DNA from: an uncultured Chloroflexia bacterium
GTDB taxonomy: Bacteria > Chloroflexota > Limnocylindria > Limnocylindrales > CSP1-4
Assembly: GCA_963707215.1 (NCBI GenBank)
Contig: CAVPPB010000002.1
Span: 224,001 to 288,000, forward strand
Reading direction: 5' to 3'
DNA length: 64,000 nt
The translations under genes were made by a program, and so were the position numbers. Positions within the stretch are counted from its first letter, which is position 1; every line of letters begins with the position of its first letter. Under the pieces are notes generated by a model. That model was not told where the DNA came from and made no database searches. It worked only from the letters and a program-made list of their open reading frames with translations. Shown here piece by piece: positions 901 through 23,726 of this stretch.

Positions 901-1042
901 ACGTGGCGGGCATCCAGGGCGAGCCCTGACGCCGGAGTGCCTCGACCGCGCCGGCAGCGAACATGCCACGCCGGCGCTTCGCTACGATCGCCTCCCCGCA
1001 TCGCCGGAGCCTGCCGGATCGGGGTCCAGGCGAAGGAGCGTC

Positions 1043-1330
1043 ATGGCGGTCAAGGTCATCGTCGAGCTGAAGGCCGAACCAGGGCGACGCGACGAGCTGC
1101 GATCGCTCATCGAGCAGCTCGCCACCCGCGATCGACCGAGCGGCTACCACGGGAGCACCTACTACGAGTCGCTCGACGACCCCGACCTGCTCATCGACAT
1201 CGCCGACTGGGAGTCGCCCGAAGCCCGGATGACGCACCTCGCGAAGGCCATGGCCGCCGGTTCGTACGGTCCGGTGCTCGAGTTGCTGGCGGGGCCCTTC
1301 CGGGCGACGGTCATCCGCCGGCTGCCCTGA
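1043..1330 (+). CDS. Antibiotic biosynthesis monooxygenase (ABM) family protein
   Basis: AAGGAG RBS, then MAVKVIVELKAEPGRRDEL...DWESPEA; 95 aa. Confidence 0.8.
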   Translation: MAVKVIVELKAEPGRRDELRSLIEQLATRDRPSGYHGSTYYESLDDPDLLIDIADWESPEARMTHLAKAMAAGSYGPVLELLAGPFRATVIRRLP

Positions 1331-1402
1331 GCCCTGGATCCGCGTCTGGTACCGTCCGGCGACCCTCGGCACCCTCCGTCCGGGGCCAGTCGAGGTGTCC
1401 AC

Positions 1403-1990
1403 GTGGAACCGCTGCGTCCCGATCAGCAGCGCGCGGCTGCGCTGACGCTCGCCGAGGCGTTCGCGAACGACCCCCTGCTCGAGATCCTTGCCCCTGACCA
1501 GGCGCGGCGGGTGAAGCTCGGGCCGCCGATGATGGACATCCTCCTGGCATACGGCCTGCGCTACGGCCGCGTGTGGGCGAACGACGACGCGTCCGCCGTG
1601 GCGATCTGGCTCCATCCCGAGGGTGGGCCGATGACCATGCCCCGGATGCTCCGGGTCGGCATGTGGCGGGCGCCCTTCATCCTCGGGCTGCAGGGCATGG
1701 GCCGGATGTCGAGGGCGATGTCCGCCACCGAAGGCTTCCACAAGCAGGTGGAGGGGCCGCACTGGTATCTCATGACCATCGGGACCCGGATGGCCAGGCA
1801 GGGGCAGGGGCTCGGCTCGCAGCTCGTCGAGCTGGGGACGTCACAGGCGGATGATGCCGGTGTGCCCTGCTACCTCGAGACCGGGACGGACTCCAACATC
1901 GCCTTCTACCGGAAGCGCGGGTTCGAGATCATCGGCCAGGCGGACTGCTACGGGTACACGCTCACCGGCATGATCCGCCCGCCGCGATAG
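1403..1990 (+). CDS. GNAT N-acetyltransferase (puromycin acetyltransferase-like subfamily)
   Basis: LAEAFANDP, HWYLMTIGT, RQGQGLGS (acetyl-CoA motif A) and YLET..N..FYRKRGF. Confidence 0.9.
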   Translation: MEPLRPDQQRAAALTLAEAFANDPLLEILAPDQARRVKLGPPMMDILLAYGLRYGRVWANDDASAVAIWLHPEGGPMTMPRMLRVGMWRAPFILGLQGMGRMSRAMSATEGFHKQVEGPHWYLMTIGTRMARQGQGLGSQLVELGTSQADDAGVPCYLETGTDSNIAFYRKRGFEIIGQADCYGYTLTGMIRPPR

Positions 1991-1999
1991 CCGGCGAAC

Positions 2000-2015
2000 T
2001 GGCGCGCCCGCAGGG
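2000..2015 (-). repeat. Copy of tRNA-Arg 3' end (att-like core, 15/16)
   Basis: tggcgcgcccgcaggg versus tggcgcgcccggaggg at 23650; intergenic. Confidence 0.7.
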
Positions 2016-2081
2016 GGGTGCTCCCCCACCCTGTTCGACGACCTGGCCTCAGTCAGTGGGTGCCCCTGCTAGCATCCACGG

Positions 2082-2999
2082 ATGCCTGGAGCGGCGCGGC
2101 CGCGGTCGTCCCTTCCCGCGACCTCCGCCGGCACGAGCACCCGCGCCTTCACCCCAGTCGACTGGGGGCTGCTGGTGATCGTCGCCCTCGGATGGGGCTC
2201 GTCGTTCTCCTTCATCGCGATCGGCCTCGGATCGTTCGCGCCAGGCGTGGTCACGATGGCGCGGATCGGGCTTGCCGCCGCGGTCCTGGCACTGTCCGCA
2301 CGGGCACGAGCGCCGGTCGCCCGCGACGACCTCGGTCGCATCGCTCTCCTGGGCGCCGCGTGGGTCGCCATCCCCTACACGCTCTATCCGATCGCCCAGC
2401 AGTGGATCGACTCGTCGGTCGCCGGGATGATCAACGGAGCCATGCCGATCTTCGCGGCGCTGTGGGCGACGCTGCTGCTGCGCCGTCCGCCAGGGTGGCG
2501 CCAGGTGCTCGGCATCGCCGTCGGGTTCGTCGGCATCGTCCTCGTCTTCGTGCCCGAGCTCCAGAGTGGCCCGTCCGCCGCTGGAGGGGCGCTGGTCGCG
2601 CTCCTGGCTGTCTCGTTCTTCGGTCTTGGCGTGAACCTGGCGGTTCCCTTGCAGCAGAAGTACGGAGCCCTGCCCGTGATCCTGCGGGCACAGGTCGCGG
2701 CCTTCGTCATGGTGCTGCCGCTCGGGCTGCTGGGCATCCCCGCGTCGACGTGGGCCTGGGACGCGGCGCTGGCCATGCTCCCGCTCGGCATCTTCGGCAC
2801 CGGCATCGCGTACGCGGCCATGGCCACGCTCGCCGGTCGCGTCGGCGGCTCGCGAGCCGCAGTCACGATCTACTTCGTCCCGCTCGTCGCCGTCGTCCTT
2901 GGCGTGGTCCTGCTCGGCGAGTCCGTCGCCCTGTCCGCCGTCGTCGGAGTCGCCCTGGTCCTGATCGGGGCCGTGAGCGCGTCCCGCCGAGAGCGCTAG
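2082..2999 (+). CDS. DMT/EamA family transporter
   Basis: About 10 hydrophobic segments; WGSSF, SSVAGMING..P and LGVVLLGE motifs. Confidence 0.9.
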   Translation: MPGAARPRSSLPATSAGTSTRAFTPVDWGLLVIVALGWGSSFSFIAIGLGSFAPGVVTMARIGLAAAVLALSARARAPVARDDLGRIALLGAAWVAIPYTLYPIAQQWIDSSVAGMINGAMPIFAALWATLLLRRPPGWRQVLGIAVGFVGIVLVFVPELQSGPSAAGGALVALLAVSFFGLGVNLAVPLQQKYGALPVILRAQVAAFVMVLPLGLLGIPASTWAWDAALAMLPLGIFGTGIAYAAMATLAGRVGGSRAAVTIYFVPLVAVVLGVVLLGESVALSAVVGVALVLIGAVSASRRER

Positions 3000-3152
3000 C
3001 CCTGTACCTCCGGTCCGCCCGGCCCGAGCCCAGGTCCGGTGCCTGCGCGACTCCGGATGCCGCTCGTGCTCCGAGCTGCGATTCGCCATGCCCGGTCCCC
3101 GGGCTTGCCATCCAGTGGACGCGCGGAGAGCGGCATCGGCGGAGCCGTCGGG

Positions 3153-3809
3153 TCAGGCCCGGTGCTCCACCGCGGGAGATCCGGGTCCGCGGAGTCCACC
3201 CACGAACGTGGCGACTGCCGTGTCCAGGAGCGACTCGGCGGTGTGGGTGTCGTCCTCGAATCGGATCTCGCGTTCCAGCACCAGGGTCACGATCCCGTGC
3301 AGCAGCGCCCAGCCGACGCGGGTCGTATCGACCGGGTCGCGTCCGGCAGGGATGGCACATGCCGCGACGCAGTCGCTGAAGAACGTGTAGGAGCCGCGAC
3401 CGGCAGCGACGGTCTCCGGGTACTCGGTGAAGGTCAGAGCGTGCTCGCCGAACAGCACGCGGTAGCGACCCCGGTTGCCAAGGCCGAACCGGACATACGC
3501 CCGCATGATGGCTTCGAGGCGTCCGAACGGCTCTGGCCCGACGGCCGCCGCCGCGGATCCCACTGCCGAGTGAAGTGCTCGGTATGCCTCCGCGGCAAGG
3601 TCAGCGAGCAGGGCCTCCTTGGTGGGGAAGTGGTGGTAGAGAGCGGCGTCTGACACGCCGAGCCGCCGCGCCACGGCGCGCAGGCTTGCCGAGTGCAGTC
3701 CGTCCTGGTCGATCAAGTCGCGCGTGCTGTCGAGGACGGCGGCACGGAGGTTCCCATGGTGGTACCGACCGGCCGGCTTGCCGCGATCAGGGTCGGGTGT
3801 CCGGTCCAT
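3153..3809 (-). CDS. TetR/AcrR family regulator (WHG-type C-terminal domain)
   Basis: YHHGNLR, SLRAVARRLGVSDAALYHHFPTKEALL and WALLHG. Confidence 0.92.
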   Translation of the reverse strand: MDRTPDPDRGKPAGRYHHGNLRAAVLDSTRDLIDQDGLHSASLRAVARRLGVSDAALYHHFPTKEALLADLAAEAYRALHSAVGSAAAAVGPEPFGRLEAIMRAYVRFGLGNRGRYRVLFGEHALTFTEYPETVAAGRGSYTFFSDCVAACAIPAGRDPVDTTRVGWALLHGIVTLVLEREIRFEDDTHTAESLLDTAVATFVGGLRGPGSPAVEHRA

Positions 3810-3837
3810 TGACGTCTATCTTAGCAGTGCTTAGACT
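3809..3837 (+). promoter_or_regulatory. Sigma70-type promoter for the hydrolase-methyltransferase operon with an embedded candidate TetR operator
   Basis: TTGACG (3809-3814), 17 bp, TAGACT (3832-3837); imperfect palindrome tcttagcagtgcttaga (3819-3835). Confidence 0.7.
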
Positions 3838-3889
3838 GGCCCGTACGCGCTCGGGCCGTCACGCGGCTCCGATTCCCAGGAGGGCTGCG

Positions 3890-4918
3890 ATGGCACGACA
3901 CGATCCAGGCCTGTACCGGCCGGCGGAAGACCGGCTCATCGGCCACTACGGTGTCGAGGTTCGCGAGCATCTCGTCCCGACTGGTGCTGACGGTCACACC
4001 GTGCGCGTCCTGGAGACCGGCTCGGGACCGGCCACGCTCTTCGTGCATGGCTCCCCGAATGCCGCGGCCACCTGGCTCGGGCTGGCGGCCCTGCTTCCGG
4101 ATCGGCGCTGCCTCATGCTCGAGCGACCCGGCGCCGGGCTCAGTCCGTCCATGCCCTGGACGGATCACCGGGCGCAGACCGTGCAGATCCAGTCGGCGGT
4201 CCTGGACCACCTCGAGGTGCGCGAGGTCGACACGGTGGGGTCCTCGTTCGGCGGCCTCTACGTGCTCAACCTCGCTCTCGCCCGTCCGGAGCGGGTGCGC
4301 CGCGTGTTGCTGATCGGTTCGCCTGGAGGGCTTGCATCGCTGCCCTATCCGGCCGTCATCCGCGGCCTGTCGCTCCCCATTCCCGCGTTCCTGCTCGCCA
4401 GGGCACTCAGGCCCGACTCGAGCGGCGCACGCGAGATGTTCGCCCAGATCGGGCACGATGAGTCCGTTCGCGCCGGAGCGATACCGCCGGTCGTCTTCGA
4501 CTGGTACTCCGCACTGCTCCGCCACACGGACACCCTGCCGAACCTCGCTCGCGAGGTGCGCGCCATCGCGACGCCGGTCGGCTATCGGGCTCGTGCGACC
4601 CTCGCCCCCCGGGACCTGGCTGGGCTCTCCCGGCCGGTCGACCTGGTGTGGGGAGGCCGCGACCCGTTCGCCACCCCGGCCCAGGCCGACGCAGCCGCGA
4701 CCGTCATGGGAGCACGGGTCGAGCATCATCCCGGGCTGGGGCACCTGCCCTGGATGGACGACCCAGCGCTGGTTGCCGACTCGATGCGGGCGCTCCTTGG
4801 GCCCGCGCCGCCGGCCTCACGTGTGACCCACGAGGCGCCGGCTGCACGCCCGGTGGCCCCCGGGCGCTCTGCCGTCGCGAACCGGCGCGTCCAGGTCGGG
4901 GGACGCCCCCGGCCATGA
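3890..4918 (+). CDS. Alpha/beta fold hydrolase
   Basis: AGGAGG RBS; FVHGSP, GSSFGG, WGGRDP and GHLPW. Confidence 0.9.
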   Translation: MARHDPGLYRPAEDRLIGHYGVEVREHLVPTGADGHTVRVLETGSGPATLFVHGSPNAAATWLGLAALLPDRRCLMLERPGAGLSPSMPWTDHRAQTVQIQSAVLDHLEVREVDTVGSSFGGLYVLNLALARPERVRRVLLIGSPGGLASLPYPAVIRGLSLPIPAFLLARALRPDSSGAREMFAQIGHDESVRAGAIPPVVFDWYSALLRHTDTLPNLAREVRAIATPVGYRARATLAPRDLAGLSRPVDLVWGGRDPFATPAQADAAATVMGARVEHHPGLGHLPWMDDPALVADSMRALLGPAPPASRVTHEAPAARPVAPGRSAVANRRVQVGGRPRP

Positions 4919-5577
4919 GCCTGCTCGGAGAGGCCTTGGCCACTGTCTGGCACAGGATGGGCGCCTGGCCCTATGACCGGATCTACCGTCGCGGGGCTCC
5001 ATGGGAGGGCGCGCCCCGCAAGGAGCTCGTCGAGCTGCTGGAGTCTGGTCGCCTGTCGCCAGTGGTGGCGGGCGGTCCCCGAGCGCTGGATGTGGGCTGC
5101 GGTTCGGGCGCAGACACGATCCTGCTGTCCGATCATGGCTTCGATGCTGTCGGGGTGGACTTCTCGACCGTCGCCCTGGAGAAGGCGAGGACGGCCGCGG
5201 GGGACCGCCCAGGCGTCTCGTTCGTGCAGGCCGATCTGTTCGCCCTCCCGGATCAGGTCACGGATCTGCAGTACGACCTGATCTTCGACGGCGGGACGCT
5301 CGATGACTTCCCGGCGGCCCGTCGCCAGGAGCTCGCCCGGATCCTCACCCGCCTGGCTCGACCAGGGGCCGTCCTGGTCCTGTGGTGCTTCTCCGCGGAT
5401 CCTGCCGAGCTCCCCCTGATGAGCCTCCGCGGACCCAGCAGGATGGGGGGTATCGGCGTCTCGCCGGCCGAGGTAGCAGCCAGCTTCGGGGCTGCCTGGG
5501 AGATCGAGCGGCTTGATGAGTCCCGGCCGGGAGGTAGGTCGGCCTTCTACTGGATGACGCGGCGATCTTCGGGGTGA
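4915..5577 (+). CDS. Class I SAM-dependent methyltransferase (TPMT/TehB-like)
   Basis: ALDVGCGSG, GVDFS and YDLIFD; ATGA overlap with the upstream gene. Confidence 0.9.
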   Translation: MSLLGEALATVWHRMGAWPYDRIYRRGAPWEGAPRKELVELLESGRLSPVVAGGPRALDVGCGSGADTILLSDHGFDAVGVDFSTVALEKARTAAGDRPGVSFVQADLFALPDQVTDLQYDLIFDGGTLDDFPAARRQELARILTRLARPGAVLVLWCFSADPAELPLMSLRGPSRMGGIGVSPAEVAASFGAAWEIERLDESRPGGRSAFYWMTRRSSG

Positions 5578-5701
5578 TGGGGCGGCCGGGCCTCGCTTCG
5601 GCCCGCGACCGATCAGCTCGCTGATCCGACGGCCACCCCCTGCGGGCCCGGAGATGGTGGCTCCCCGAGGCTGACGCGGTGGGCGGTCAAGGGCGAGCAC
5701 C

Positions 5702-5739
5702 TGGCGCGCCCGGAGGCGGTCGGGCGCGAAGGAACGACA
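5702..5739. repeat. att-like scar: tRNA-Arg 3' core plus conserved arm
   Basis: tggcgcgcccggaggc ggtc gggcgcgaaggaacgaca. Confidence 0.8.
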
Positions 5740-5956
5740 CGTGCTGGTCGACCGCGCGGGAAGTCGGGACGTTGTCCTCTAGCACGCGCCTTGCGAGAGC
5801 AGGACCGTGGGCCCCGACAGCCCATGGCCGGCCCGCCATCCGGGCGCGCGACCACGGGCTCCTGTGAGTGGAGGACGCGGCGGAGCAGATCGTATACGAC
5901 ACCGGATCGACGGTGGTCAGCCCCCGGCCACCGGGATGGAAGCACCTGGAGGGCGC

Positions 5957-8900
5957 ATGTCACCGATGAGGATCAAGCAAGTGATGGCGGCCATCGTCAT
6001 GGCCGCGCTGGTGGCGATGGCCGTACCCATCGGAGCGGCAGCCACGCCCGCCGACGACGTCGTCGAGGTCACGCTGCTGCACACCAACGACTTCCATGGA
6101 CGACTCGAGGCGGACAGCTCCGGTCGTGGAGGATCGGCGAACATCGCCGGGGTCGTCGAGAGCATCAGAGCCGACGTCGGCGAGGACAACGTCGCCCTGC
6201 TGGACGCCGGGGACGTGTACTTCGCGGCGCCCGCCATCTCTCAGCTCCTGATGGGCGAGAGCACCATCGACGTCTACAACCTGATGGGCTACGACGTCGC
6301 CACCTTCGGCAACCACGAGTTCGACAAGGGTCAGGAGGAGCTCGCGACACGCGTCGCCCAGTCGCAGTTCCCGTGGCTGGGTGCGAACGTCGTGCTCGAA
6401 GGCACGGACTGGGACCTGCCCGAGTGGGCGGAGCCGTATGCGCTGCTCGAGGTCGGCGGGATCACGCTTGGCGTCCTCGGACTCGCCGGTGAGGAGACCC
6501 CCGAGGTCACCCTGCTCGGCACCACCGAGGGCCTGATCTTCAAGGACCTGACCGAGACGATCCTGCACTACTACGACACCGTGATGGCCGAGGCCGACGC
6601 GATGGTCGTGCTCGTCCACATGGGCACCGCCGACAGCGGCCCGTACCAGGGGCTCGAGTCGGTGGCCCAGGAGCTGATCGATGCCGGGAAGCCGGTCGAC
6701 CTCATGATCGGCGGCCACCAGCACCAGGCCCTGTTCGCTCCCGTCTACGTCGGTGACACGGCGATCGTTGCGGCCGGCTACTACGGGCGCTGGCTGGGCC
6801 AGGTGGACGTGTCGATCGACCCGTCGACCAAGGATCTGACCGTCAGCTCCTACAAGCTCCACGCCATCACCGAGTGGACCGGGAAGACGGCCGCCCTGAA
6901 GAGCGCGGTCGAGGGCTACTACGCGAGCGGCGCCATCGCCGACGAGGGCATCTTCGACAGCCTGATGGCGAAGCTCGACACTGCCACGGCGTCGATCGAG
7001 CGCGGCCAGACGAAAGCGGCCGCCAACAAGCTCAGCGCGTTCGTCAATCAGCTCGAGGCGCTCAGCGGGAAGAAGGTCGATGCCTCGGCGGCGGAGGCTC
7101 TGATCGCCAGTGCCGAGATGCTCGCGTTCACGCTGCCCGATCCGGCGGTAGCCGACCTCGTGGACTACTGGGCCGAGGTCGTTGCCCCGATCGTCAACGA
7201 GCCGGTCGGGTACACCAACGTGAGCCTGGTCCGCGACTACAACGACGAGTCGGTCATGGGTGACATCGTCAGCGACTCCATGCTGTGGTCGGCCGACTCG
7301 TACGACGACGGCGAGCTCAACGGCTCGGTCGATGTCGCCTTCACCAACCCGGGAGGGCTGCGGGCCGACATCACGATCCCCGACGGGGCCGCCCTGCCGT
7401 ACACCGTGACCTGGGGCGACACCTTCGACGTGCTGCCGTTCGGGAACACGCTGTACCTGATGGACCTCACCGGAGCCCAGATCCAGGAGATCCTCGACCA
7501 GGCGGCCACGCTCTACAAGGGCATGCTGCAGACGTCGGGGGCCGAGTGGTACTGGTACAACGACTGCGGCTGCGCCACGCCGACGGCGTGGGGCGCCTAC
7601 GGGGTGGAGATCGGCGACGAGCCGCTCGTCCGTGACGAGGTCTACCGGGTGGTGACCAACAACTTCCTGGCCGGTGGCCAGGACGGCTGGGTCACCTTCG
7701 CCGACGGCACCAACCGCTGGGACACGTACTACGACATGCAGCAGGGATTCGTGGAGTACATCGAGATGCTCGACGTGATCGACGCCGAGGACATCCCGAT
7801 GGATCGGATCGCCCGCCTCGATGACGTGGTGACGATGCTCCACACCAACGACACCCACGGCACGTGGCCGGAGACCTACTACTACGGCGCGCCCGAGGGC
7901 TTCGCGTTCCTGGCCGACACGATCGCGAAGGAGCGGGCCCACAACCCGAACGCTCTCCTGCTCGATGCCGGTGACACGTTCCAGGGCAATGCCTTCGCCC
8001 AGTACTTCCGCAACGCCGATCCCAACCCGATCGCCGGTGGGATGAACCTGCTCGGCTACGACGCGATGACGATCGGCAACCACGAGTTCAACTTCGGTCC
8101 GGCGACGTTCGCCACCATGCTCGGCCAGCTCGACGCGCCGCTCCTGGGGACGATCAACCTCGACGACGACGGGTCCTACGGCTTCATCAACGAGAACGTC
8201 CAGGACTACATCAACCTCGAGGTCGACGGCCTGAAGGTGACGGTCTTCGGGCTCACCAACCCGCGGGTCTACCGCTACGAGTTGCCCACGAACATCCCCG
8301 GCCTGACGTTCTACTCGGGCCTGGACACCGGGTTCGCGGCGGTACCCGAGATCCTGACGGCGGAGAGCCCGGACCTGCTGGTCGGCCTCACCCACATGGG
8401 GTACTCGCCCTACGGCGACGAGATCGACAGCGACGTGCTCCTGGCCGAGGGCGTCGCCGGGATCGACGTGATCATCGGCGGGCACAGCCACACCTTCCTG
8501 GACCAGGCCGTGATGGTGACGTCCGCCACCAACCCGGACGGGACGCTCGTCGCCCAGTCCGGGCGCTACGCCCTGAACCTGGGGCAGGTCAACGTCGGGT
8601 TCATCGACGGTGAGGTCGTGCTCCGCGAGGGCTATCTGATCCCGGCCACCGAGGCCCAGGTCGACCCCGAGATGGAGGCATACCTGCAGCCCTTCGTGGG
8701 TGAGCTCGACGCCTACACCAGCACCGAGATCGGCCAGACCACGGCCCCGATCGACGCGCTCCAGGCGTATACGCAGGAGACGAACGGCGCCAACCTGCAG
8801 GCCGACGCCGCCGTCTACGAGCTCGAGACCAACGGTGTCACGGTCGACCTCCACCTGTCCGGTGCGATGTCGAACCGCAAGGTCGCGGACGGCGCGACGC

Positions 8901-15768: not shown

Positions 15769-15807
15769 TGGCGCGCCCGGAGGGGCGCCGGGCCCGCAGA
15801 GGCAACA
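15769..15807. repeat. att-like scar: tRNA-Arg 3' core (16/16) plus conserved arm
   Basis: tggcgcgcccggaggg gcgcc gggcccgcagaggcaaca. Confidence 0.85.
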
Positions 15808-15992
15808 GGACCTGTGCCTCTGGTCGGGACGGGTCTTGGGGCGGAACCTGTTCGCATCGAGGCGGACGATCCGGGCTCACCGGCTCCGGGCCGGCCCTCG
15901 CGCACCGCCCGAGTTGCCCTCGGCGCGGCAGCGGGTCGCGGCCGACGCGGCTTGGCCAGCCTGGCAGTCCGTCCTCGATGGAGGAGGCTGCC

Positions 15993-16757: not shown

Positions 16758-16855
16758 CGGCGTCGCACGCCGATCTCGTCGAGGCCGGAGCGGGGAAACA
16801 GCGAAACCTCGAACCCGCCGCTCCTCTCGCGGACCTGGTACGGACACGGGGCCAT

Positions 16856-16893
16856 TGGCGCGCCCGGAGGGCTGTGGACGCGCAGGACCAACA
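16856..16893. repeat. att-like scar: tRNA-Arg 3' core (16/16) plus conserved arm
   Basis: tggcgcgcccggaggg ctgt ggacgcgcaggaccaaca. Confidence 0.88.
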
Positions 16894-17198
16894 AGCGCTG
16901 CTTGAGAACGCATGGCTCGGGCAGGCGTGACAATCCAGGCGCGCCACGTTCCCGTCGTAAAGCTCGCCGAGGAGCACCAAGCGCTCGGGGTCGGTCCCGT
17001 GGTCGGCAGCGTGTGCCACCGCGTACGACACGCGCGGCGAGGGCACCGTTCCGCTCGGCGACGAGCAGCCCTCGAGCACGAGCGCCGCGACGCACAGCGG
17101 CATGACCGGGTTCATCGGCGCCGACGCCGCCGTGGGGTCGGGTCATCCGGATGACGATCCCGGGACTTCCGGCCCTGCCGCATGCCACACGATATTCA

Positions 17199-17210
17199 GT
17201 AATACATTAC
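17199..17210. promoter_or_regulatory. Candidate MarR operator / leaderless promoter
   Basis: Near-palindrome gtaatacattac 2 bp before the ATG, in an AT-rich patch. Confidence 0.5.
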
Positions 17211-17212
17211 GC

Positions 17213-17710
17213 ATGCAGCACGAGACAACGGACCCATCGCCCGATCCGCGCCCCGTCGCCTTCGGCACCGTCTTCATCGTCGCGCACCACCTCGACCTGC
17301 TCGGCGATGTCGCCCTGGCCCCGCTCGGGCTCACGACCAAGCAGTGGCTCCTGCTCGCCGTCATCGAGCGGGCCTTCGCGGGGCACCACCCGACGCTGAG
17401 CGAGGCGGCGGCCGCGTATGGGAGCTCCCGCCAGAATGTCAAGGCGATGGCGCGGGCCCTCGAGGCCGCGGGCTACCTGCGGCTCGTGCCCGACGCGGTC
17501 GACGGCAGGGCCACCCGGCTCGAGCCGACCGCCCGCCTCGAGGTGTTCGCGACACCGGAGTGGAAGGCCCGCGAGGCGGCGTTCTTCGAGTTCGCCTTCG
17601 GTGGCCTCCCCGCGGAGGACGTGGCCAGCCTCGCCGACCTCCTGCAGCGCTGGCTCGCCGCGGTGGCCGCCATGCCGAACGTTGCCACGCGAGTGAAGGG
17701 AGCGAAATGA
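17213..17710 (+). CDS. MarR family regulator
   Basis: GLTTKQWLLL, SSRQNVK..ARALE..GY and D.RA. Confidence 0.88.
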   Translation: MQHETTDPSPDPRPVAFGTVFIVAHHLDLLGDVALAPLGLTTKQWLLLAVIERAFAGHHPTLSEAAAAYGSSRQNVKAMARALEAAGYLRLVPDAVDGRATRLEPTARLEVFATPEWKAREAAFFEFAFGGLPAEDVASLADLLQRWLAAVAAMPNVATRVKGAK

Positions 17711-18114
17711 TCGTCCGACTGCTGGCGGCCGCCCTGCTGGCGGCTCACGGCCTCATCCACCTGATTGGGTTCCTCGTGCCCTGGCAGATCGCCCAGGTGG
17801 AGGGCTTCGCGTACCGGACGACGGCACTCGGCGGGAGCGTGGAGCTCGGCACGATCGGAGCGCAGCTCGTCGGCCTCGCCTGGCTCGCGATCGCGGTCGG
17901 CTTCGTCGTCGCCGCGGTCGGTGTCTGGCGCCGGTCTGCGTGGGCGCTCGGGCTGACCGGCGCGCTCGCGATCGCGTCCCTCCTCGTCTGCGTCCTCGGA
18001 CTGCCCGAGACGGTGGCCGGGATCGTCGTGAACGTGGCGATCCTCGCGGCTGCGGCCTGGCTGGCGCTATTCCGGGGGCGCGTGACTGCCCCGGCGACCG
18101 GCGGAGGGCGGTGA
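17707..18114 (+). CDS. Small four-TM membrane protein
   Basis: HGLIHLIGF N-terminus; hydrophobic; ATGA-coupled to MarR. Confidence 0.75.
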   Translation: MIVRLLAAALLAAHGLIHLIGFLVPWQIAQVEGFAYRTTALGGSVELGTIGAQLVGLAWLAIAVGFVVAAVGVWRRSAWALGLTGALAIASLLVCVLGLPETVAGIVVNVAILAAAAWLALFRGRVTAPATGGGR

Positions 18115-18908
18115 TGGCACGACCCGTCTCGAAGGCCCGATTCGGGGAGCTCGTCGAGGCCGAGTTCGCGGCCCAGCCGCTCACGCCGTCATCGACGCTC
18201 GCCGAGGAGGACCTGGCGCCCCTGCCCGCTCCCGTCCAGCGCTACGTCCGCGCCTCCGGTGCCGTCGGCCGGCCGCGGCCGCGCAACGTCCGGATCGAGT
18301 TCGATGCCGTCATGCGGCGCAAGCCGGGCGATCAGGGGATGGCCGCGACGTCCGTCCAGTACAACTTCTTCGATCGGCCGGCGCGGCTCTTCTTCATGAC
18401 GGCCCGGATGCACGCGCTGCCGGTGCAGGCCCTCCACGTCTACCGGCTCGAGGAGGCCACCTTCACTGTTCGCGTCGCCTCCCTGGTGAACATGGTCGAC
18501 CAGCATGGCCCGGAGATCAGCCGGGCCGAGACGGTGACCGTCCTCAACGACCTCTGCGTGTTCGCGCCGGGCGCGCTCGTCGACCCCCGGCTCAGCTGGC
18601 AGCCGATCGACGACCGGAGCGCCGCCGTGACGTTCACGAACGGCCCGCACCGTGTCTCGGCAACGCTCCTCTTCGGCGAACACGGCGAGCTGGTCGACTT
18701 CTGGTCGGACGATCGGCCCGACAGCAGCAGTGGCCGCTTCGTGCCGATGCGCTGGAGCACGCCCGTCGGCGATCATCGCGAGGTCGGCGGCCTCCGCCTG
18801 CCGACGCGGGGCAGCACCATCTACGCCCGTCCGGATGGCCCGTTCACCTACGGCGAGTTCACGCTGCGCTCGCTCGCCTGCGATGTCCCCGGACCGCACG
18901 GCGGGTAG
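18114..18908 (+). CDS. DUF6544-like protein
   Basis: DLAPLPAPVQRY, AETVTVLND..PGAL and WSTP; TGATG coupling. Confidence 0.75.
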   Translation: MARPVSKARFGELVEAEFAAQPLTPSSTLAEEDLAPLPAPVQRYVRASGAVGRPRPRNVRIEFDAVMRRKPGDQGMAATSVQYNFFDRPARLFFMTARMHALPVQALHVYRLEEATFTVRVASLVNMVDQHGPEISRAETVTVLNDLCVFAPGALVDPRLSWQPIDDRSAAVTFTNGPHRVSATLLFGEHGELVDFWSDDRPDSSSGRFVPMRWSTPVGDHREVGGLRLPTRGSTIYARPDGPFTYGEFTLRSLACDVPGPHGG

Positions 18909-18919
18909 CCACGCCGCGC

Positions 18920-19399
18920 ATGCTCTCCCGGACACACCTCACGGGGGACCCAGTGGACATCCTCTCGGCCGCGATCATCATCTTCGCCGTCATCGAGACG
19001 CTCAACGTCGGCATCCTCTACTTCCGTCCCGGCACGCGCGTGGGCAACGGGATGGGCGTGTTCAACGCCTATCGGACGTCGGAAGCCGACCCGGAGACGC
19101 GCGAGCTCGTCCGCTACCTGGTCAACTGGGTGGCCGGCACCAAGCTCATCTTCGTGGGCCTGCTCGCCGTGATCGTCCTCACGGGCAGCCAGACGACGAA
19201 GGCGTTCGCGGTCATGGCCCTGATCCTCTCGATCCTCTCGTTCTTCTGGCGCCTGTTCCCGGGGATCGTTCGTCTCGACCGGGACGGTCAGATCACCCCG
19301 AGCGGGTACTCGAGGACGCTGGGGATCATGATCGCGTGCTTCGTCGGGGGATTGGCCGCAGCGTTGGTCGTGTCCCTCGCGTTCGGTTCCGGCGGCTGA
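18920..19399 (+). CDS. Hypothetical membrane protein
   Basis: Four hydrophobic helices; GC3-biased codons; YLVNWVAGTKLIF. Confidence 0.7.
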   Translation: MLSRTHLTGDPVDILSAAIIIFAVIETLNVGILYFRPGTRVGNGMGVFNAYRTSEADPETRELVRYLVNWVAGTKLIFVGLLAVIVLTGSQTTKAFAVMALILSILSFFWRLFPGIVRLDRDGQITPSGYSRTLGIMIACFVGGLAAALVVSLAFGSGG

Positions 19400-19490
19400 C
19401 GAGGCCGCTGCCTCACGCAACCCGACGCGGAGCGCGGCCCTTCGGCCCGAGCTCGCGACCTTCGCCCCTCGCCGGGAGCGCAGCTCCCGT

Positions 19491-19720
19491 CAACGGCGAC
19501 AGGCTGTGCCTCGAGCACACGATGTTCAGCCAGACGGTGTTCGGGGACGCCGGCCCCCTGGGCTTCACGCTCGTGGGCGAGTGGGATGCTGTCGGCGGCA
19601 CGGGGCGGTTCGCCCATGCGACGGGACACGGCACGCTGGACGGGGCTGGTGACATCCCCGACGGACGGGGACGTTGGGCCTTCCTGACGGCCTCGCGGCG
19701 TTCAACTTCACGGGCGGGAC
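19491..19720 (+). pseudogene. Fragment of a beta-rich hypothetical protein (GGTGRFA.ATG motif)
   Basis: ..GEWDAVGGTGRFAHATGHGTLDG.. with no credible start. Confidence 0.45.
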
Positions 19721-19861
19721 GCGTACGATGCATCGGACCGCTCGATGAAGCCGCAGGACCGAGGGCTCATCCCCCGGTCGCGTTACGCATCGTCAGGGGC
19801 CTCAATCGCGCTGTCGCTCTCGACCAGCTGCCCGCGATGGCACGGCTCCTGACCGCGTCCA

Positions 19862-19927
19862 GGTGTCGCCGATGTCGCGACGCAGGTGTCGCTCGAGCCC
19901 CACGGCGTCAGGCGCGCAGGAGCAATA
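19862..19927. mobile_element. IS481-type end remnant fused to an eroded att-like scar
   Basis: gtgtcgccgatgtcgcgacgcaggtgtcgc matches the repeats at 23598-23641; it is followed by ..cgtc aggcgcgcaggagcaata (arm motif). Confidence 0.7.
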
Positions 19928-20173
19928 CGGGCGACGGATCGGGCCCGCCGGGGCGCGGCACGAGATGAACCGCCCCGGGTTCGTCGCGGACCGGGATCGC
20001 TGAGTCGCGGGTGCGCGACCGGAGGCCGTTCGCCCGCCCCGACCCATCCACGCACTCCGCCAGGGCGAAGGTCAGACGAGAGCAGCCGGGCGCCCTCCGG
20101 GCGTCGTGGCCTGGCGAGCAGGGGCGATGTCCCGAAGCTCGGTCCAGCGGAACACGTGAAGGTGAGTGCCACG

Positions 20174-20740
20174 GTGGGTGAGACGATCAAGATCCTGATC
20201 CTCGCGGGCAGTCTCCGCCGGGGCTCGTACAACCGGGCGCTGGCGCGTGCTGCTGCGCAGCTCGCACCGAGCGGCGTGGCCACCGCGACGTTCGATGGGC
20301 TCGGCGCCCTCCCGTTCTACGACGGGGACGTCGAGGACGAAGGTCTGCCCGCGAGCGTCAGTGCGCTGCGGCGGGCGATCGTGGAAGCCGACGCGCTGCT
20401 CCTCGCGACCCCCGAGTACAACGGCGCCACGAGTGGGGTCCTCAAGAACGCCCTCGACTGGGCCTCCCGCGGGCCCGACAGGATCCTCGCCCGAAAGCCC
20501 GTCGCGGTCATGGGCGCGTCGACCGGGGCGAGTGGTGCGAGAGGTGGGATCGAGTCGGTCGTGCGGATCATGACCCGCGTGCGTTCGGAGGTGGTCGGTC
20601 ACCTCGTCGCCGTTCCGTTCGCGGCGCAGGCGTTCGACGACGACCTGGCCCTGCGGGACCCGGAGATTCGCACCGAGGTCGCCGAGCTGGTCGCCGAGCT
20701 CGCCGGTCGCGCTCGCAGCAGCACCGCTCTCGCCGCCTGA
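20174..20740 (+). CDS. NADPH-dependent FMN reductase (ChrR/SsuE-like)
   Basis: GSLRRGSYN, TPEYNG, LKNALDWASR and KPVA. Start approximate. Confidence 0.92.
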   Translation: MGETIKILILAGSLRRGSYNRALARAAAQLAPSGVATATFDGLGALPFYDGDVEDEGLPASVSALRRAIVEADALLLATPEYNGATSGVLKNALDWASRGPDRILARKPVAVMGASTGASGARGGIESVVRIMTRVRSEVVGHLVAVPFAAQAFDDDLALRDPEIRTEVAELVAELAGRARSSTALAA

Positions 20741-20792
20741 CGGGCTGCCTCGCAGCAGGGCCGCGGAGCGTGAGCGGTGCTACCGTCGCCGC

Positions 20793-21239
20793 ATGAGTGG
20801 CACCGCGGCGCCCCACCGGTCGTCGCTTCCTCGGACCATCGCACGGGTGGCCCTGGGGTTGGTCCTGCTGGTCGCCGGCATCGCCCATCTCACCTTCGGC
20901 CGCGAGGAGTTCACCGCGCAGGTCCCGGACTGGCTGCCGGTGGCCGACGACCTCGTCGTCGTCGGGTCGGGTGTCGTCGAGCTCGCACTCGGCGCGTCCC
21001 TCATCGCCCTGCCGCGCCATCGGGTCGCCGTGGGCTGGCTGTCGGCAGCGTTCCTCGTCGCGATCTTCCCGGGGAACATCGCCCAGTACGTGAACCAGGT
21101 CGACGCCTTCGGGCTCACCAGCGACGGGGCGCGAGCGGCCCGCCTGGTCCTCCAGCCGCTTCTCGTCCTGTGGGCTCTCTGGTCGACGGATGCATGGCGC
21201 GACCGGGCAATGCTCTGGAGAGTGGTTGGCGGCCCGTGA
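20793..21239 (+). CDS. DoxX-like membrane protein
   Basis: AGIAHL, QVPDWLP, SGVVE, IFPGNI and RLVLQP. Confidence 0.85.
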   Translation: MSGTAAPHRSSLPRTIARVALGLVLLVAGIAHLTFGREEFTAQVPDWLPVADDLVVVGSGVVELALGASLIALPRHRVAVGWLSAAFLVAIFPGNIAQYVNQVDAFGLTSDGARAARLVLQPLLVLWALWSTDAWRDRAMLWRVVGGP

Positions 21240-21265
21240 TAGGCGGAGGTGCCGGCCGGCGGCTT

Positions 21266-21321
21266 TGTCGCGACGCATGACAATGGCGCGCCCGGAGGGC
21301 ATCGGGCACGCAGGAACAACA
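21266..21321. repeat. IS481-type terminus + tRNA-Arg 3' core (16/16) + conserved arm
   Basis: tgtcgcgacgcatgaca a tggcgcgcccggaggg catc gggcacgcaggaacaaca; the same junction occurs at 23632-23665. Confidence 0.9.
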
Positions 21322-21516
21322 ACGGCCACGCTCCTGTTCAACGATGGCCCCTGCTCCTCCCGAGTGGCCCGCTCTGATAGGGATAGACCCCAGATCGCTT
21401 GTCCGTCAGCCGCTCGGTTGATATTCGGGTCTGGACGGCCAGTGGCGACGGGTGGTTCAAGCGGTGGAACGGGACCCGCCCCAGGACCGCGAGATCGACC
21501 AGCCGGCCCGACGTCG

Positions 21517-21708
21517 CTAGCTGTCGTCCGAGCCCTGCTCCGATTGCCAGAATCCGAGGCCAAGGACGACGAAGACGACGCACAGGACGATGAACGCCGC
21601 GTTGGCCGCGATGGCCCCAGTGTCGCCAACGAATCCAGCGACTCCCGCGATCAGAAAGCACAGTGCGGCGATCAAGTACATCACCGCTGCTCTACGCCGA
21701 GCCTTCAA
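21517..21708 (-). CDS. Small two-TM hypothetical protein
   Basis: AAAGGAGG RBS before a TTG start; two hydrophobic helices. Confidence 0.6.
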   Translation of the reverse strand: MKARRRAAVMYLIAALCFLIAGVAGFVGDTGAIAANAAFIVLCVVFVVLGLGFWQSEQGSDDS

Positions 21709-21801
21709 GCCAATTCCTCCTTTCGCAGTAGTTGTGCAGGTTGGGCGGTCATCTCCAGAGCTCGCCCCCAGGGCCCCACGACCACATGACCTCTGAACAC
21801 G

Positions 21802-21853
21802 TGCCGATGGCCATCTGAAGGTCCCCGCCTGTGGCCAAGAGAAGTCCCCACCG
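21802..21853. mobile_element. Orphan IS21-like terminal repeats
   Basis: Tandem ggcca..gaa(g)gtcccc units (ggccatctgaaggtcccc, ggccaagagaagtcccc) resembling IS21-family ends; no istA/istB in the window. Confidence 0.45.
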
Positions 21854-21904
21854 GGCGACGGCGTCGTGGACGGCGGCCCAGGCGACGATGCCGTGGGAAC
21901 TCGC

Positions 21905-22225
21905 TCAGTCGGGCAGGCCCGCAAGCGCTTCGTGCATCGCGGTCCGGTAGCGGCGGAACGCAGCTCGCCCTTCGTCGGTGAGCGAAACCATCGAGTGCGG
22001 CTTCTTTCCCCTATAGCCCTTCTCGATCGCCACGTAGCCCGCGGTCTCGAGCTTGGTCAGACTGGTAGACAGATTGCCCCACGTCAGTCCGGTCTGGTTG
22101 ATCAGCCAGGTGAAGTCGGCCGCATCCAGGACGGCCAGCTCGATCAGCAGGCGCAATCGTGCCGGCGAGTGGATCACGGGATCGATCTCCTCGAGCGGAT
22201 GAGCGCCCGGATCGCTACTGGTCAT
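21905..22225 (-). CDS. Winged-helix (MarR/ArsR-like) transcriptional regulator
   Basis: DPVIHSPARLR, GNLSTSLTKLE.AGY and LTDEGRAAF. Confidence 0.9.
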   Translation of the reverse strand: MTSSDPGAHPLEEIDPVIHSPARLRLLIELAVLDAADFTWLINQTGLTWGNLSTSLTKLETAGYVAIEKGYRGKKPHSMVSLTDEGRAAFRRYRTAMHEALAGLPD

Positions 22226-22856
22226 GCAGTTCTCCGGCCGCCTCTGGGGCCGCCCGATGCGTTCTGGCCAGCAGGCGAGCGAATTGGGTCACGCCGATGC
22301 TCGCGACCACCACGGCCGCCACTCCGAAGGTCACCGGCCAGCCGTGGTGCGCGGCGTAGCCCTCACGGAACAGCCATTCCCCGATGACCACCGCCGCCGC
22401 GAACATGAGCCCATAGAGGTACAGCCGCGGCGTGTCCAGGTAGTAGGCCGCCGTCGAGAAGAGCACGAGCCAGATCAGCATGAACATGATCGTTGGCGCG
22501 TAGCCGGCCGACGGGCTCAGGAGGAAGGCGATCAACCCTCCCCCGAGGGCGATGACGTTGACCGCCAGCATGAGCAGCATGAACGTCCGAAGGCGTCGCT
22601 GCCGGTAGTCGCCGACGCGCACGATGCCAACTCGGGAGACCAGCAGCCGACTCCGGACCAGCTTGATCAGCAGGTACGCACCTCCCACCACAGGGACCAG
22701 GATCGCCGAGCTCCAGAAGTCGCCCAGCGACTCGCTCAGCAGCAGGATGAGGGCGAAACCCGCCAAGAAGCAGGCGAGCAACACGTCCCACAATCCGTCG
22801 TCGTAGGCGTTGCGGAACGCCCTGCGCTCCGCCTGTCCGAGATCGGTGAGTGTCAT
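22215..22856 (-). CDS. Hypothetical multi-TM membrane protein
   Basis: YDDGLWD N-terminus and about 6 TM segments; overlaps the regulator. Confidence 0.75.
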   Translation of the reverse strand: MTLTDLGQAERRAFRNAYDDGLWDVLLACFLAGFALILLLSESLGDFWSSAILVPVVGGAYLLIKLVRSRLLVSRVGIVRVGDYRQRRLRTFMLLMLAVNVIALGGGLIAFLLSPSAGYAPTIMFMLIWLVLFSTAAYYLDTPRLYLYGLMFAAAVVIGEWLFREGYAAHHGWPVTFGVAAVVVASIGVTQFARLLARTHRAAPEAAGELHDQ

Positions 22857-22872
22857 GGTCGCACTCCTCAAG

Positions 22873-22895
22873 AGTACTTTGCAGGTCAAAGTACT
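22873..22895. promoter_or_regulatory. Perfect 9-bp inverted repeat operator upstream of the membrane protein-regulator operon
   Basis: agtactttg-caggt-caaagtact. Confidence 0.7.
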
Positions 22896-22915
22896 TTAGC
22901 CTCCTACGCCTGGCA

Positions 22916-23648
22916 TGTCAAGCCGGCCACCGGGACGGCGGCGACGACGTGGTGGCCACGTTCAGCGCGGCAGGCGAGGAGCACGGGTGGCCCGCCGCCC
23001 CGCTCACCGACACCGGCGCGGTCTACACGTCGCGCTTCACCGGGGGCCGCAACGGCTTCGAGTACCTGCTCGCCTACCTCGGCATCCGCCAGAAGAACGG
23101 GACGCCGGGCCATCCCCAGACCCAGGGCAAGAACGAGCGCTTCCGCCAGACCCTCAAGCGCTGGCTCGAGAACCAGCCGGCGGCGCGGACCCTGGGCGAG
23201 CTCCAGACCCAGCTCGACGCCTTCTGCCTCGCCTACAACGAGCAGCGGCCGCACCGGGCGGTCGGCCGGATGACGCCCGGCGAGGCGTACCGGGCGACGC
23301 CCACGACGATGGTCGCCGGGAGCCGCGCCGGCCACTTCCGTCTCCGCTACGACGTGACCGACGGGAAGGGCGCGATCACCCTGCGCCGGGCCGGCCGCCT
23401 GCACCACCTCAACATCGGCGCGGCTCATGCCCGTCAGCGGGTCCTGGCCATCGTCGACGAGCACGAGGTCACGGTCGTCGCCCTCGACACCGGCGAGGTC
23501 CTGTCCAGCCACCTCATCGAGCCGGACCGCCGGTACTGGCGCAACCAACGAAGAGACCCCGGCCGATGGCCGAGGTCTCCAGCGACCGGGTGACGCATGT
23601 GTCGCCGATGTCGCGACTCATGTGTCGCACATGTCGCGACTCATGACA
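22916..23648 (+). mobile_element. 5'-truncated IS481-family element (integrase core transposase remnant, stop at 23593) with subterminal repeats ending ..ACA
   Basis: LTDTGAVYTSRF, PGHPQTQGKNERF.QTLK and YNEQRPHR; 23-bp repeats catgtgtcgc..atgtcgcgact; ends catgaca 1 bp from the tRNA CCA. Confidence 0.85.
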
Positions 23649-23649
23649 C

Positions 23650-23726
23650 TGGCGCGCCCGGAGGGATTCGAACCCCCGACCCTCTGATCCGAAGTCAGAT
23701 GCTCTGATCCACTGAGCTACGGGCGC
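23650..23726 (-). tRNA. tRNA-Arg (anticodon TCG)
   Basis: GCGCCCG acceptor stem, TAGCTCAGTGGA D-arm, TCTGA-CTTCGGA-TCAGA anticodon arm, GGTTCGAATCC T-arm and encoded CCA; 77 nt. Confidence 0.97.

Follow-up and report, generated by a model that had tools for sequence, protein, structure and literature searches.

Copies of the tRNA-Arg(TCG) 3' end and the 38-nt site

We analyzed a stretch of 64,000 nucleotides (nt) from an uncultured Chloroflexia bacterium (GenBank assembly GCA_963707215.1, contig CAVPPB010000002.1, positions 224,001 to 288,000), which is referred to below as the window. Its G+C content is 70-75%, and the assembly comprises 3.26 Mb in 5 contigs and is 84.8% complete. The window contains a single tRNA gene, tRNA-Arg(TCG), located on the minus strand at 23650-23726 (ARAGORN; Rfam tRNA, 71.6 bits). 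To its left lie blocks of accessory genes that are separated by copies of the 3' end of this tRNA. We regard this tRNA-anchored accretion array with mobile cassettes as real and well supported.

The repeated core, TGGCGCGCCCGGAGGG, is the reverse complement of the last 16 nt of tRNA-Arg(TCG). Exact matches start at 15769, 16856, 21284, and 23650, and copies with 15 of 16 matches start at 2000 and 5702. Every core copy with up to one mismatch is on the plus strand, and all non-tRNA copies are left of the tRNA gene. At this threshold, all six matches in the 3.26-Mb genome fall within the array (window 2000-23650), confirming an earlier sequence-only reading, in which copies of the tRNA 3' end had been described in one orientation left of the tRNA. 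When up to two mismatches were allowed, eight matches were found in the window compared with 0.89 expected, and none of 100 shuffled sequences reached eight. The two matches added in this way, one on the minus strand at 5836 and one on the plus strand at 41109, are no more than expected by chance.

As a control, the last 16 nt of 52 tRNAs were searched for within 60 kb of each gene. Most tRNAs matched only themselves; four serine tRNAs matched one another (four matches each), and three tRNAs had two matches. The only large local 3'-end cluster not explained by paralogous tRNA genes was that of tRNA-Arg(TCG). Three copies of the last 16 nt of tRNA-Pro(CGG), with up to one mismatch, were present within 60 kb of its gene (C3:1279714-1279790 of the same genome), which may be a second small array.

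The core is one part of a longer site. All 44 sites that were aligned consist of the core, 4 variable nt, and an arm, with the spacer fixed at 4 nt. The arm consensus, GGGCGCGCAGGAACAACA, had four matches in the whole genome at up to three mismatches, and all of them are array sites (5722, 16876, 19910, and 21304). The arm at 15790 has four mismatches to the consensus. An independent nhmmer profile, built from the 44 sites, all of which come from other genomes, was scanned against the genome under study. It found the sites at 21284, 16856, and 5702 (E-values in Table 1), the tRNA end (E = 0.012), and, more weakly, the sites at 15769 and 19904 (E = 0.49 for the latter). Matches below these were noise. 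An Rfam scan detected the tRNA only, and no Rfam family matches the sites.

Three further junctions had been proposed as eroded sites. The one at 19891 is recognized by its arm (three mismatches, array-only) and a remnant of an insertion sequence (IS) end, not by its core. The other two, at 927 and 11295, were not detected by the profile and are marked solely by a left flank of 43-220 nt that they have in common with the 5702 site. This left-flank motif, located at 708-927, 5642-5684, and 11074-11294, is genome-specific; 708-927 and 11074-11294 are 77-85% identical over 220 nt, and at 11074-11294 the repeat overlaps the 3' end of the open reading frame (ORF) of an M28 peptidase. The flank may be a right end common to related elements, or it may have arisen by duplication in place. 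The sequence TGGTGGCTCCCCGAGG in the left flank of 927, 5702, and 11295 was considered as the end of another tRNA. This idea was dropped because no tRNA of the genome ends in this way. Good matches to the motif were confined to the three window sites (0, 2, and 3 mismatches); about 973 kb of loci contained ten weaker ones (3-4 mismatches), all in unrelated sequence.

The arm had been described as a motif that is not tRNA sequence. It is not arbitrary, however: its first 8 nt (GGGCGCGC) correspond to core nt 3-10 (GCGCGCCC) in reverse complement. This inner 8-bp inverted repeat is present in nearly all sites, and its symmetry centre lies between core nt 15 and 16. Where the left flank TGTTGTTC is present (11 of 134 arm sites), it completes a 46-bp imperfect palindrome made of two 23-nt halves. 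The stretch identical to the tRNA extends from the tRNA's last base exactly to the symmetry centre, which is expected if strand exchange takes place at the centre and the left half of the element rebuilds the tRNA.

Arrays were also found at tRNA-Arg(CCT), with five cores in L163 (G205:C6:354600-374599) and two in L164 (G088:C3:613300-633299). There the core is TGGCGCCCCCGGACGG, followed by 4 nt, an arm beginning with GGGGGCGC, and a similar ACGA..CAAAG tail. The inner repeat thus comprises GCGCCCCC in the core and GGGGGCGC in the arm, compared with GCGCGCCC and GGGCGCGC at tRNA-Arg(TCG). Between these two targets, the inner repeat of the arm changes in step with the target tRNA.

Cassettes shared between genomes and an overlaid insertion sequence

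Among the first 40 relatives searched, the site was found in one. A scan of species representatives yielded 30 tiles from 24 metagenome-assembled genome (MAG) records labelled Chloroflexia, Chloroflexota, or Chloroflexi. Each tile contains one to five cores in the same orientation, 0.2-5 kb apart, and six tiles include tRNA-Arg(TCG). Exact cores were clustered in one region in each of five other whole genomes that were examined. A metagenome scan added 79 contigs with the site (L045-L123). In total, 216 unique core contexts were classified by the sequence on the right side of the core. An arm with a 4-nt spacer followed in 134 contexts, the tRNA body in 25, an arm with a 3- or 5-nt spacer in four, the left end of an IS in four, and other sequence in 49.

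Genomes differ in the blocks that they contain, and the breakpoints coincide with the repeats. The clearest pair is L014 (1098-2595) and L030, which are 97.7% identical over 1499 nt from core to core, compared with 88% in the flanking tRNA region and 73% in the M23 peptidase gene. The shared cassette is the second from the tRNA in one genome and the first in the other. More generally, the high-scoring segment pairs from 118 high-identity matches between pairs of loci had 386 internal ends, of which 138 were located within 30 nt of a core, compared with 11 of 386 random positions.

Counterparts of three window blocks were found at other loci. Positions 21284-22931 match the metagenome contig L095 with 99.0% identity over 1648 nt; one boundary of this match is the site, and the other is 22931, where the truncated IS starts. 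The GNAT cassette (15764-16766) is 81% identical to L015 4307-3303, where it is bounded by sites at 4287 and 3237, and the DoxX region (20777-21249) has a 90% identical counterpart at L034 4009-4481, immediately left of a site in that locus. The tRNA-proximal cassette was found nearly unchanged in contigs of all four sediment runs compared, which belong to four studies. What adjoins the cassette on its left differs in these contigs from 21284 onward, and divergence at 22931 is seen in several of them; the runs match just 0.07-0.14 of the words of the stretch, and their uncovered parts are not evidence of absence. Joints in the assembled contigs, such as those from 16887 to 21284 and from 21320 to 23645, connect repeated sites and are indistinguishable from assembly effects. 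Around the tRNA in genome G022, only the tRNA, 110 nt of the IS end, and one scar are held in common. By sequence comparison, cassettes demonstrably move between species. The interpretation given in the sequence-only reading is supported in part, including the proposal that the copies are att-type junctions left by repeated insertion at the tRNA 3' end. Two outcomes had been named there as refuting it, a 38-mer spread over the whole genome and breakpoints in gene content away from the sites, and neither was observed. The array shows same-orientation direct repeats of an RNA gene's 3' end, on the 3' side only, and these bound accessory blocks.

The junctions of the window divide the array into intervals of 1073, 3702, 5593, 4474, 1087, 3035, 1393, and 2366 nt, if the weak sites at 927 and 11295 are counted. 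The cargo consists of ordinary accessory genes on both strands (Table 1). Among the 100 largest ORFs located up to 4.5 kb from sites in the 79 metagenome contigs, the commonest products were AlkZ-like DNA glycosylases (eight), alpha/beta hydrolases (eight), and adenylate/guanylate cyclase fusions (six). The window gene at 11336-12718 falls in the hydrolase-cyclase group. In an all-against-all comparison of 242 ORFs, only the IS and a housekeeping M23 peptidase upstream of the tRNA were recurrent. At the left edge of the window, a minus-strand ORF (3-1001) with weak esterase/peptidase_S9 matches contains six head-to-tail copies of the 21-nt unit GCTCGGYTCGGGCGTCSCCGT at 369-521.

Table 1. Junctions, cassettes, and genes between the left edge of the array and tRNA-Arg(TCG), in order of window position. 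Genes were called by a GC3-based method and domains were assigned with Pfam.
Feature	Position	Strand	Details
Possible outermost eroded junction (weak)	927-966	+	not found by the profile
GNAT gene	1403-1990		within block 927-1990; Pfam
Core-only copy	2000-2015	+	15/16; no arm behind it
EamA transporter	2082-2999	+	block 2016-5701; Pfam
TetR	3153-3809	-	block 2016-5701; Pfam
Alpha/beta hydrolase	within 3575-4918	+	block 2016-5701; Pfam
Methyltransferase	within 4648-5577	+	block 2016-5701; Pfam
38-nt site	5702-5739	+	15/16 core, GGTC, arm GGGCGCGAAGGAACGACA; nhmmer E = 1.2e-4
5'-nucleotidase/metallophosphatase	5807-9412		block 5740-11294; 1201 amino acids (aa); Pfam
M28 peptidase	9544-11268		block 5740-11294; Pfam
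Possible heavily eroded site (weak)	11295-11334	+	not found by the profile; left flank common to 5702 and 927
Hydrolase-cyclase fusion	11336-12718	-	block 11335-15768; Pfam
MFS transporter	12824-14116	-	block 11335-15768; Pfam
CGNR regulator	14191-14817	+	block 11335-15768; Pfam
B3/4-domain protein	14902-15609	-	block 11335-15768; Pfam
Site with 5-nt spacer	15769-15807	+	exact core, weaker arm GGGCCCGCAGAGGCAACA; nhmmer E = 0.29
Single-gene cassette	15808-16855	+	GNAT acetyltransferase (Pfam)
38-nt site	16856-16893	+	exact core, CTGT, arm GGACGCGCAGGACCAACA; nhmmer E = 1.7e-8
Cassette	16894-19859	+	MarR 17102-17710; DUF6544 17940-18908; 159-aa ORF 18920-19399 (Pfam)
Eroded junction	19860-19927	+	IS right-end remnant 19860-19892 (repeat D11, 91% identical to 23596-23628), degenerate core 19891-19906, arm AGGCGCGCAGGAGCAATA 19910-19927
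Cassette	19928-21265	+	FMN reductase within 19886-20740; DoxX/MauE-like membrane protein 20793-21239 (Pfam)
IS right-end remnant, 18 nt	21266-21283	+	TGTCGCGACGCATGACAA, directly left of 21284; repeat D19, 90% identical to 23632-23670
Best-preserved 38-nt site	21284-21321	+	exact core, CATC, arm GGGCACGCAGGAACAACA; nhmmer E = 4e-10
tRNA-proximal cassette	21322-22931	+	HTH_34 regulator 21905-22225 (minus strand); 224-aa ORF without family match 22215-22889 (minus strand)
rve_3 ORF, 5'-truncated DDE transposase	22850-23593	+	Pfam rve_3 4e-19; the genome's only rve_3 match
IS remnant, 5'-truncated	22932-23649	+	right end 23596-23649 with repeated ATGTCGCGACTCATG motif; abuts the tRNA 3' end
Insertion point	23650-23665	+	tRNA last 16 nt = repeated core, attB-like

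In line with the sequence-only reading, according to which the window has no integrase, neither a tyrosine nor a serine recombinase was found there. That reading had missed, however, the remnant of an IS481-family DDE transposase between the tRNA-proximal cassette and the tRNA. The intact IS is 1316 bp long, with the left end TGTCTGAGTTCACGACAT, the right end ATGTCGCGACTCATGACA, and terminal inverted repeats that begin with TGT. We found five copies of 1316-1332 bp with both ends in common: L039:8614-9930 and L040 (both in G045), L041 (G044:C19), L042 (G044:C11), and L043 (G042:C12). The full-length transposase of 400 aa (G045 copy) has the domains HTH_32, HTH_28, LZ_Tnp_IS481, rve, and rve_3, of which the window copy keeps the rve_3 part only. 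The element is assigned to the IS481 family by its single DDE transposase with helix-turn-helix/leucine zipper and rve core, its terminal inverted repeats, and its target duplication. The window copy is 83% identical to an intact copy in L030 and lacks the left 575 nt or so.

Intact copies are placed exactly at tRNA 3' ends, and a 15- to 16-nt duplication of the tRNA end keeps the tRNA whole. The targets include at least two different tRNAs: G044 and G045 each have a copy at tRNA-Arg(TCG), and G044 has a further one at another tRNA, with the 15-mer repeated in tandem there. Tandem 15-mers at L030 4737-4782 and in L041 look like footprints of repeated IS insertion and loss. The 15-nt duplication ends at the same point as the tRNA-identical stretch of the 38-nt site, and this shared endpoint may be a coincidence. 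Among the papers listed in a literature search, none dealt with a tRNA-specific IS481-family member.

In L040 (G045:C1:3177500-3181000) and L043 (G042:C12:199000-202500), the IS carries a tRNA-Arg 15/16-mer to a foreign place. One of these copies has the Arg 15-mer on its left and a different tRNA on its right. The second shows the Arg core joined to the body of a different tRNA, and the 3' end that belongs to that tRNA now lies on the far side of the IS; judged by its sequence, this chimera is probably dead.

The IS right-end motif is found directly left of the window junctions 23650, 21284, and 19891. The pattern recurs in other genomes; of the 134 arm sites, 25 have an IS right-end remnant directly on their left. 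In the simplest reading, the IS, which inserts at tRNA 3' ends with 15-bp duplications, would have struck the live tRNA-Arg(TCG) gene several times, and each copy would have been pushed outward in turn by later cassette insertions and then decayed.

Recombinase candidates and models of array growth

The sequence-only reading had suggested that a recombinase should be looked for beyond the left edge or at other loci with the same arm. None was found that could be linked to the array in its own genome, but a family of large serine recombinases (LSRs) was found beside tRNA 3' ends in relatives. Genome G045 encodes a 531-aa LSR inside its array, and homologues of this protein were detected in 39 of 201 family genomes. 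A tRNA adjoins the LSR gene, or a C-terminal remnant of it, in 21 of the 30 loci listed. These tRNAs are tRNA-Glu(TTC) (13 loci), tRNA-Arg(CCT) (six), tRNA-Arg(TCG) (one), and tRNA-Ser together with tRNA-Arg(GCG) (one). Of these 21 loci, 13 were examined in detail, and in them the conserved C terminus ...PPARPFF ends 20-40 nt from the tRNA 3' end. The domains Resolvase, Recombinase, and Zn_ribbon_recom were identified in the proteins of G045 and G175 and in one tRNA-Glu-linked enzyme.

Genome G175 shows the arrangement most directly. Its intact LSR of 526 aa occupies the tRNA-proximal slot and abuts tRNA-Arg(TCG), with the reading frame running into the core, and behind it follow seven further cores, 1-6 kb apart. 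A strict pattern of a recombinase end plus core was present in two of 401 genomes, namely G175 and G267, the latter with a C-terminal LSR remnant at tRNA-Arg(TCG). The arrays at tRNA-Arg(CCT) in L163 and L164 also adjoin serine recombinase genes, which are N-terminally truncated. No second core copy was found beside the tRNA-Glu-linked LSRs, whose contigs are too short to be informative either way.

Based on these data, we consider it likely that the region 927/2000-23650 of the window arose by tandem accretion at the 3' end of tRNA-Arg(TCG), through a serine integrase that acted in trans or has since been lost. Circular elements or cassettes would carry a 38-nt attP-like site, the left part of which corresponds to the last 16 nt of the tRNA and the right part to 4 variable nt plus the 18-nt arm, with its first 8 nt mirroring core nt 3-10. 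Such elements would recombine with the tRNA end. Since the left part is identical to the tRNA's last 16 nt, insertion would rebuild the tRNA gene. Each insertion would leave an old core plus arm on the far side and an intact tRNA on the near side, so that later arrivals would push earlier ones outward.

Sites of large serine recombinases are about 40-50 bp long and have imperfect dyad symmetry around a central dinucleotide. A serine-recombinase mechanism is the best-supported inference, and it is unproven. The enzyme would most likely be an LSR of the family whose genes end 20-40 nt from tRNA 3' ends in relatives, and a serine integrase would be expected to cut at the symmetry centre, between core nt 15 and 16. 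Because most cassettes lack a recombinase, they may have been moved in trans or may be leftovers, or the enzyme may be one not yet seen. Site anatomy, confinement of the sites to the array, cassette sharing with breakpoints at the sites, and the location of LSR genes beside tRNAs in relatives are observations; the assignment of this recombinase family to the site, the position of the crossover, and action in trans are what we infer here.

Several results weigh against this model. Neither the own genome nor G041-G043 had a match to PF00239, and tblastn (E up to 10) found no LSR remnant in the window or the rest of the own genome, which is 84.8% complete. The tblastn matches that were obtained in the window were a trivial overlap with the core and a weak match in the GNAT cassette (E = 0.11), the latter of which was not trusted. 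When the G045 LSR was used as a phmmer query, neither the 30 tiles nor the 79 metagenome contigs gave a match. Ten further genomes with arrays had no PF07508 match on the array contig, as far as contig identities could be derived from their numbering, and five of the 10 had no match at all. None of the viral contigs scanned carries the site, which means that no free attP form was seen, and none encodes an LSR relative. Both LSR-bearing blocks, in G045 and G175, have non-consensus distal arms, and the outer left half of the palindrome is missing from most arm sites, as described above. Finally, the last 50 nt of L095 (reverse-complemented) contain the consensus arm, CATC GGGCGCGCAGGAACAACA, after the non-core sequence ...CGGTACGAGCGGGGG, which does not fit the simple model.

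A more far-reaching version is possible, although we hold it to be doubtful: the system may be a serine-recombinase counterpart of the integron, with the 38-nt site in the role of attC and the tRNA-Arg 3' end as the docking site in the role of attI. Single-gene cassettes that lack a recombinase would be inserted and removed by a tRNA-targeting LSR, which would often be encoded at another place or be present only for a time. Since the cassette site and the tRNA have an identical left half-site of 16 nt, recombination would yield one cassette-type and one tRNA-type site instead of attL/attR hybrids. A strong G-to-A-only drift in the arm (see below) might further mean that the site acts as a folded single strand. 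In the absence of true attL/attR hybrids, the reaction would be reversible without a directionality factor, and any run of cassettes adjacent to the tRNA could therefore leave as a circle and re-enter another genome. The term integron-like, which the sequence-only reading had used, is apt as an analogy. It does not hold in detail, given that genes lie on both strands, IntI and attC are absent, and the enzyme is likely an LSR and not an integron-type integrase.

As textbooks describe, tyrosine integrases insert at the 3' ends of tRNA genes and duplicate that end. The blocks might accordingly be classical islands, that is, insertions resembling phages or integrative and conjugative elements whose tyrosine integrases were later deleted, with the arm as a core- or arm-type integrase binding site. 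Tyrosine recombinases are also used by 910 of 937 tycheposon elements (see below), and such islands have existed in the genome under study. A tyrosine recombinase gene split over two frames (C3:400514-401256) directly adjoins tRNA-Lys(CTT); it is a separate, classical tRNA-linked island remnant. Matches to PF00589 in this genome were confined to contig C3, and none was located near the array here or in any of the five other genomes (G043 has two, on another contig). A phmmer search of limited sensitivity, with three tyrosine-recombinase queries, gave no match in the window, the 30 tiles, or the 79 metagenome contigs. No recombinase family was among the top 25 of 130 Pfam families listed for the 100 largest ORFs located up to 4.5 kb from sites, the last of these 25 having two members. 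In addition, the 8-bp inverted repeats are 10 bp apart, which is wider than the overlap of tyrosine enzymes, usually 6-8 bp. We therefore regard this explanation as unlikely.

Slightly less probable still is that the sites are conserved for another reason, for instance as a folded structure (an RNA or a hairpin of single-stranded DNA) resembling the tRNA acceptor stem, with cassettes being swapped by homologous recombination and no dedicated recombinase involved. Most arrays do lack a recombinase, and the near-identical sites of different species supply 16-38 nt of homology. Substitutions in the arm stem are strongly skewed, with 42 G-to-A changes compared with one C-to-T, and G-T/G-U pairing is kept on the tRNA-sense strand. 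However, the substitution counts do not represent independent events, and folding of the sense strand was not consistently better than that of shuffled sequences (z = -3.1, +0.7, -1.9, and -2.4); as mentioned, no Rfam family was matched. Homology of 16-38 nt is marginal for RecA-type exchange. This reading would also leave unexplained why sites form beside the tRNA only and why the shared core ends exactly where the tRNA ends.

The overlaid IS offers another route, in which the repeats would be target-site duplications of this tRNA-end-specific element and the blocks would have been trapped between successive IS insertions. Intact copies flanked by 15- to 16-nt tRNA-end duplications, tandem 15-mers as footprints, and IS right-end remnants on the left side of three window junctions and of 25 of the 134 arm sites are what one would expect. 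But in this case the IS left end (TGTCTGAG...) should follow the core, which it does in only four of 216 contexts. Moreover, the arm is unlike either IS end, arrays are also present in G041 and G043, where the transposase query found no copy, and IS insertion brings no cargo. As the main cause of the array, the IS is largely refuted and in our view very improbable. A generic dispersed repeat of the repetitive extragenic palindromic (REP) type that resembles the tRNA end by chance, suggested by the GC-rich, palindromic sequence, is refuted, since core, arm, and profile scans detected no copy of the 38-mer elsewhere in the genome, and the sites are in one orientation and cluster by the tRNA in all five other genomes.

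The array is a clean natural record of island growth, with ordered, datable layers and IS remnants as time marks, from a poorly known, uncultured soil and sediment lineage of Chloroflexota. The data suggest an LSR family whose attachment sites mimic tRNA acceptor stems. Candidate enzyme-site pairs are available for three tRNAs (Arg-TCG, Arg-CCT, and Glu-TTC), and matched pairs of this type are sought by genome engineers. If it is true that recombinase-less cassettes move in trans and reversibly, integron-like gene capture would have been invented a second time, independently. The IS481 member specific to tRNA ends provides a tidy case of safe-site targeting by a DDE transposase.

Comparison with known systems

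Tandem accretion by site-specific insertion is a known route of island building. The closest parallel is provided by the ssrA islands of Dehalococcoides, which are arranged in tandem and bounded by a 20-bp repeat of the tmRNA 3' end (McMurdie et al. 2011, PMC3146451). In that report, a serine recombinase of about 540 aa, DsiB, is the proposed integrase, 15 of 31 islands lack an integration module, and the authors propose cis-mobilisable elements gathered by accretion (PMC3146451). Both systems belong to Chloroflexota, are tandem arrays at the 3' side of a small RNA gene, and show a direct repeat of its 3' end (20 bp there, 16 nt here). They differ in the target, which is tmRNA there and tRNA-Arg(TCG) here, and in the size of the blocks, which are smaller here (1.1-5.6 kb, often one gene). 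The recombinase is mostly absent here or else stands alone, abutting the tRNA and reading towards it, whereas the ssrA recombinase is described as part of a six-gene module with a second small recombinase. A conserved 18-nt arm that mirrors the core is a further difference of the junctions studied here.

Tycheposons of Prochlorococcus use tyrosine recombinases in 910 of 937 elements and large serine recombinases in a minority; in their islands, successive insertions at tRNAs push older elements inward and leave partial tRNAs and broken integrases (Hackl et al., bioRxiv 10.1101/2020.12.28.424599). The likeness to the present array lies in cargo elements at tRNA genes and in new arrivals that displace older ones. 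In contrast to tycheposons, which have replication modules and tyrosine recombinases, most blocks here carry neither. A conserved palindromic junction with a fixed 4-nt spacer is not described in the passages of that study considered here.

A protein-gene counterpart is SCCmec, in which the Ccr large serine recombinases (CcrAB pair) insert at the 3' end of rlmH/orfX and tandem composites arise, including recombinase-less pseudo-elements between short direct repeats. Common to both are the insertion at the 3' end of one conserved gene, by a serine recombinase that is proposed in our case, and the tandem composites. The differences are the protein-gene target, the other phylum, the much larger elements, and the two-protein enzyme of SCCmec.

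Integrons resemble the array in several respects: both are polar arrays of small, mostly single-gene cassettes without a recombinase, with one imperfect palindrome per cassette, a fixed anchor, and sharing across species. The attC site has paired R''/R' cores, RYYYAAC ... GTTRRRY, and a variable centre. Here, in contrast, the site TGGCGCGCCCGGAGGG-NNNN-GGGCGCGCAGGAACAACA is conserved in sequence, has a fixed length, and lacks the attC core pair. Genes are on both strands, the anchor is a tRNA, and no IntI-type tyrosine recombinase was found beside the array in the own genome or in any of the five others.

The overlaid IS of 1316 bp is a typical IS481-family element in having a single transposase (HTH, LZ_Tnp_IS481, rve, and rve_3) and TGT inverted repeats. 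It differs from the family in inserting specifically at the last 15 nt of tRNA genes.

Thus, tRNA-anchored accretion as such is already described for the ssrA islands and the tycheposons, and the present array is an unusually tidy, cassette-like case of it. New features are the target, the small cassettes that lack a recombinase and have a fixed 38-nt junction mirroring the tRNA acceptor strand, the family-wide spread in uncultured Chloroflexota, and the overlaid tRNA-specific member of the IS481 family.

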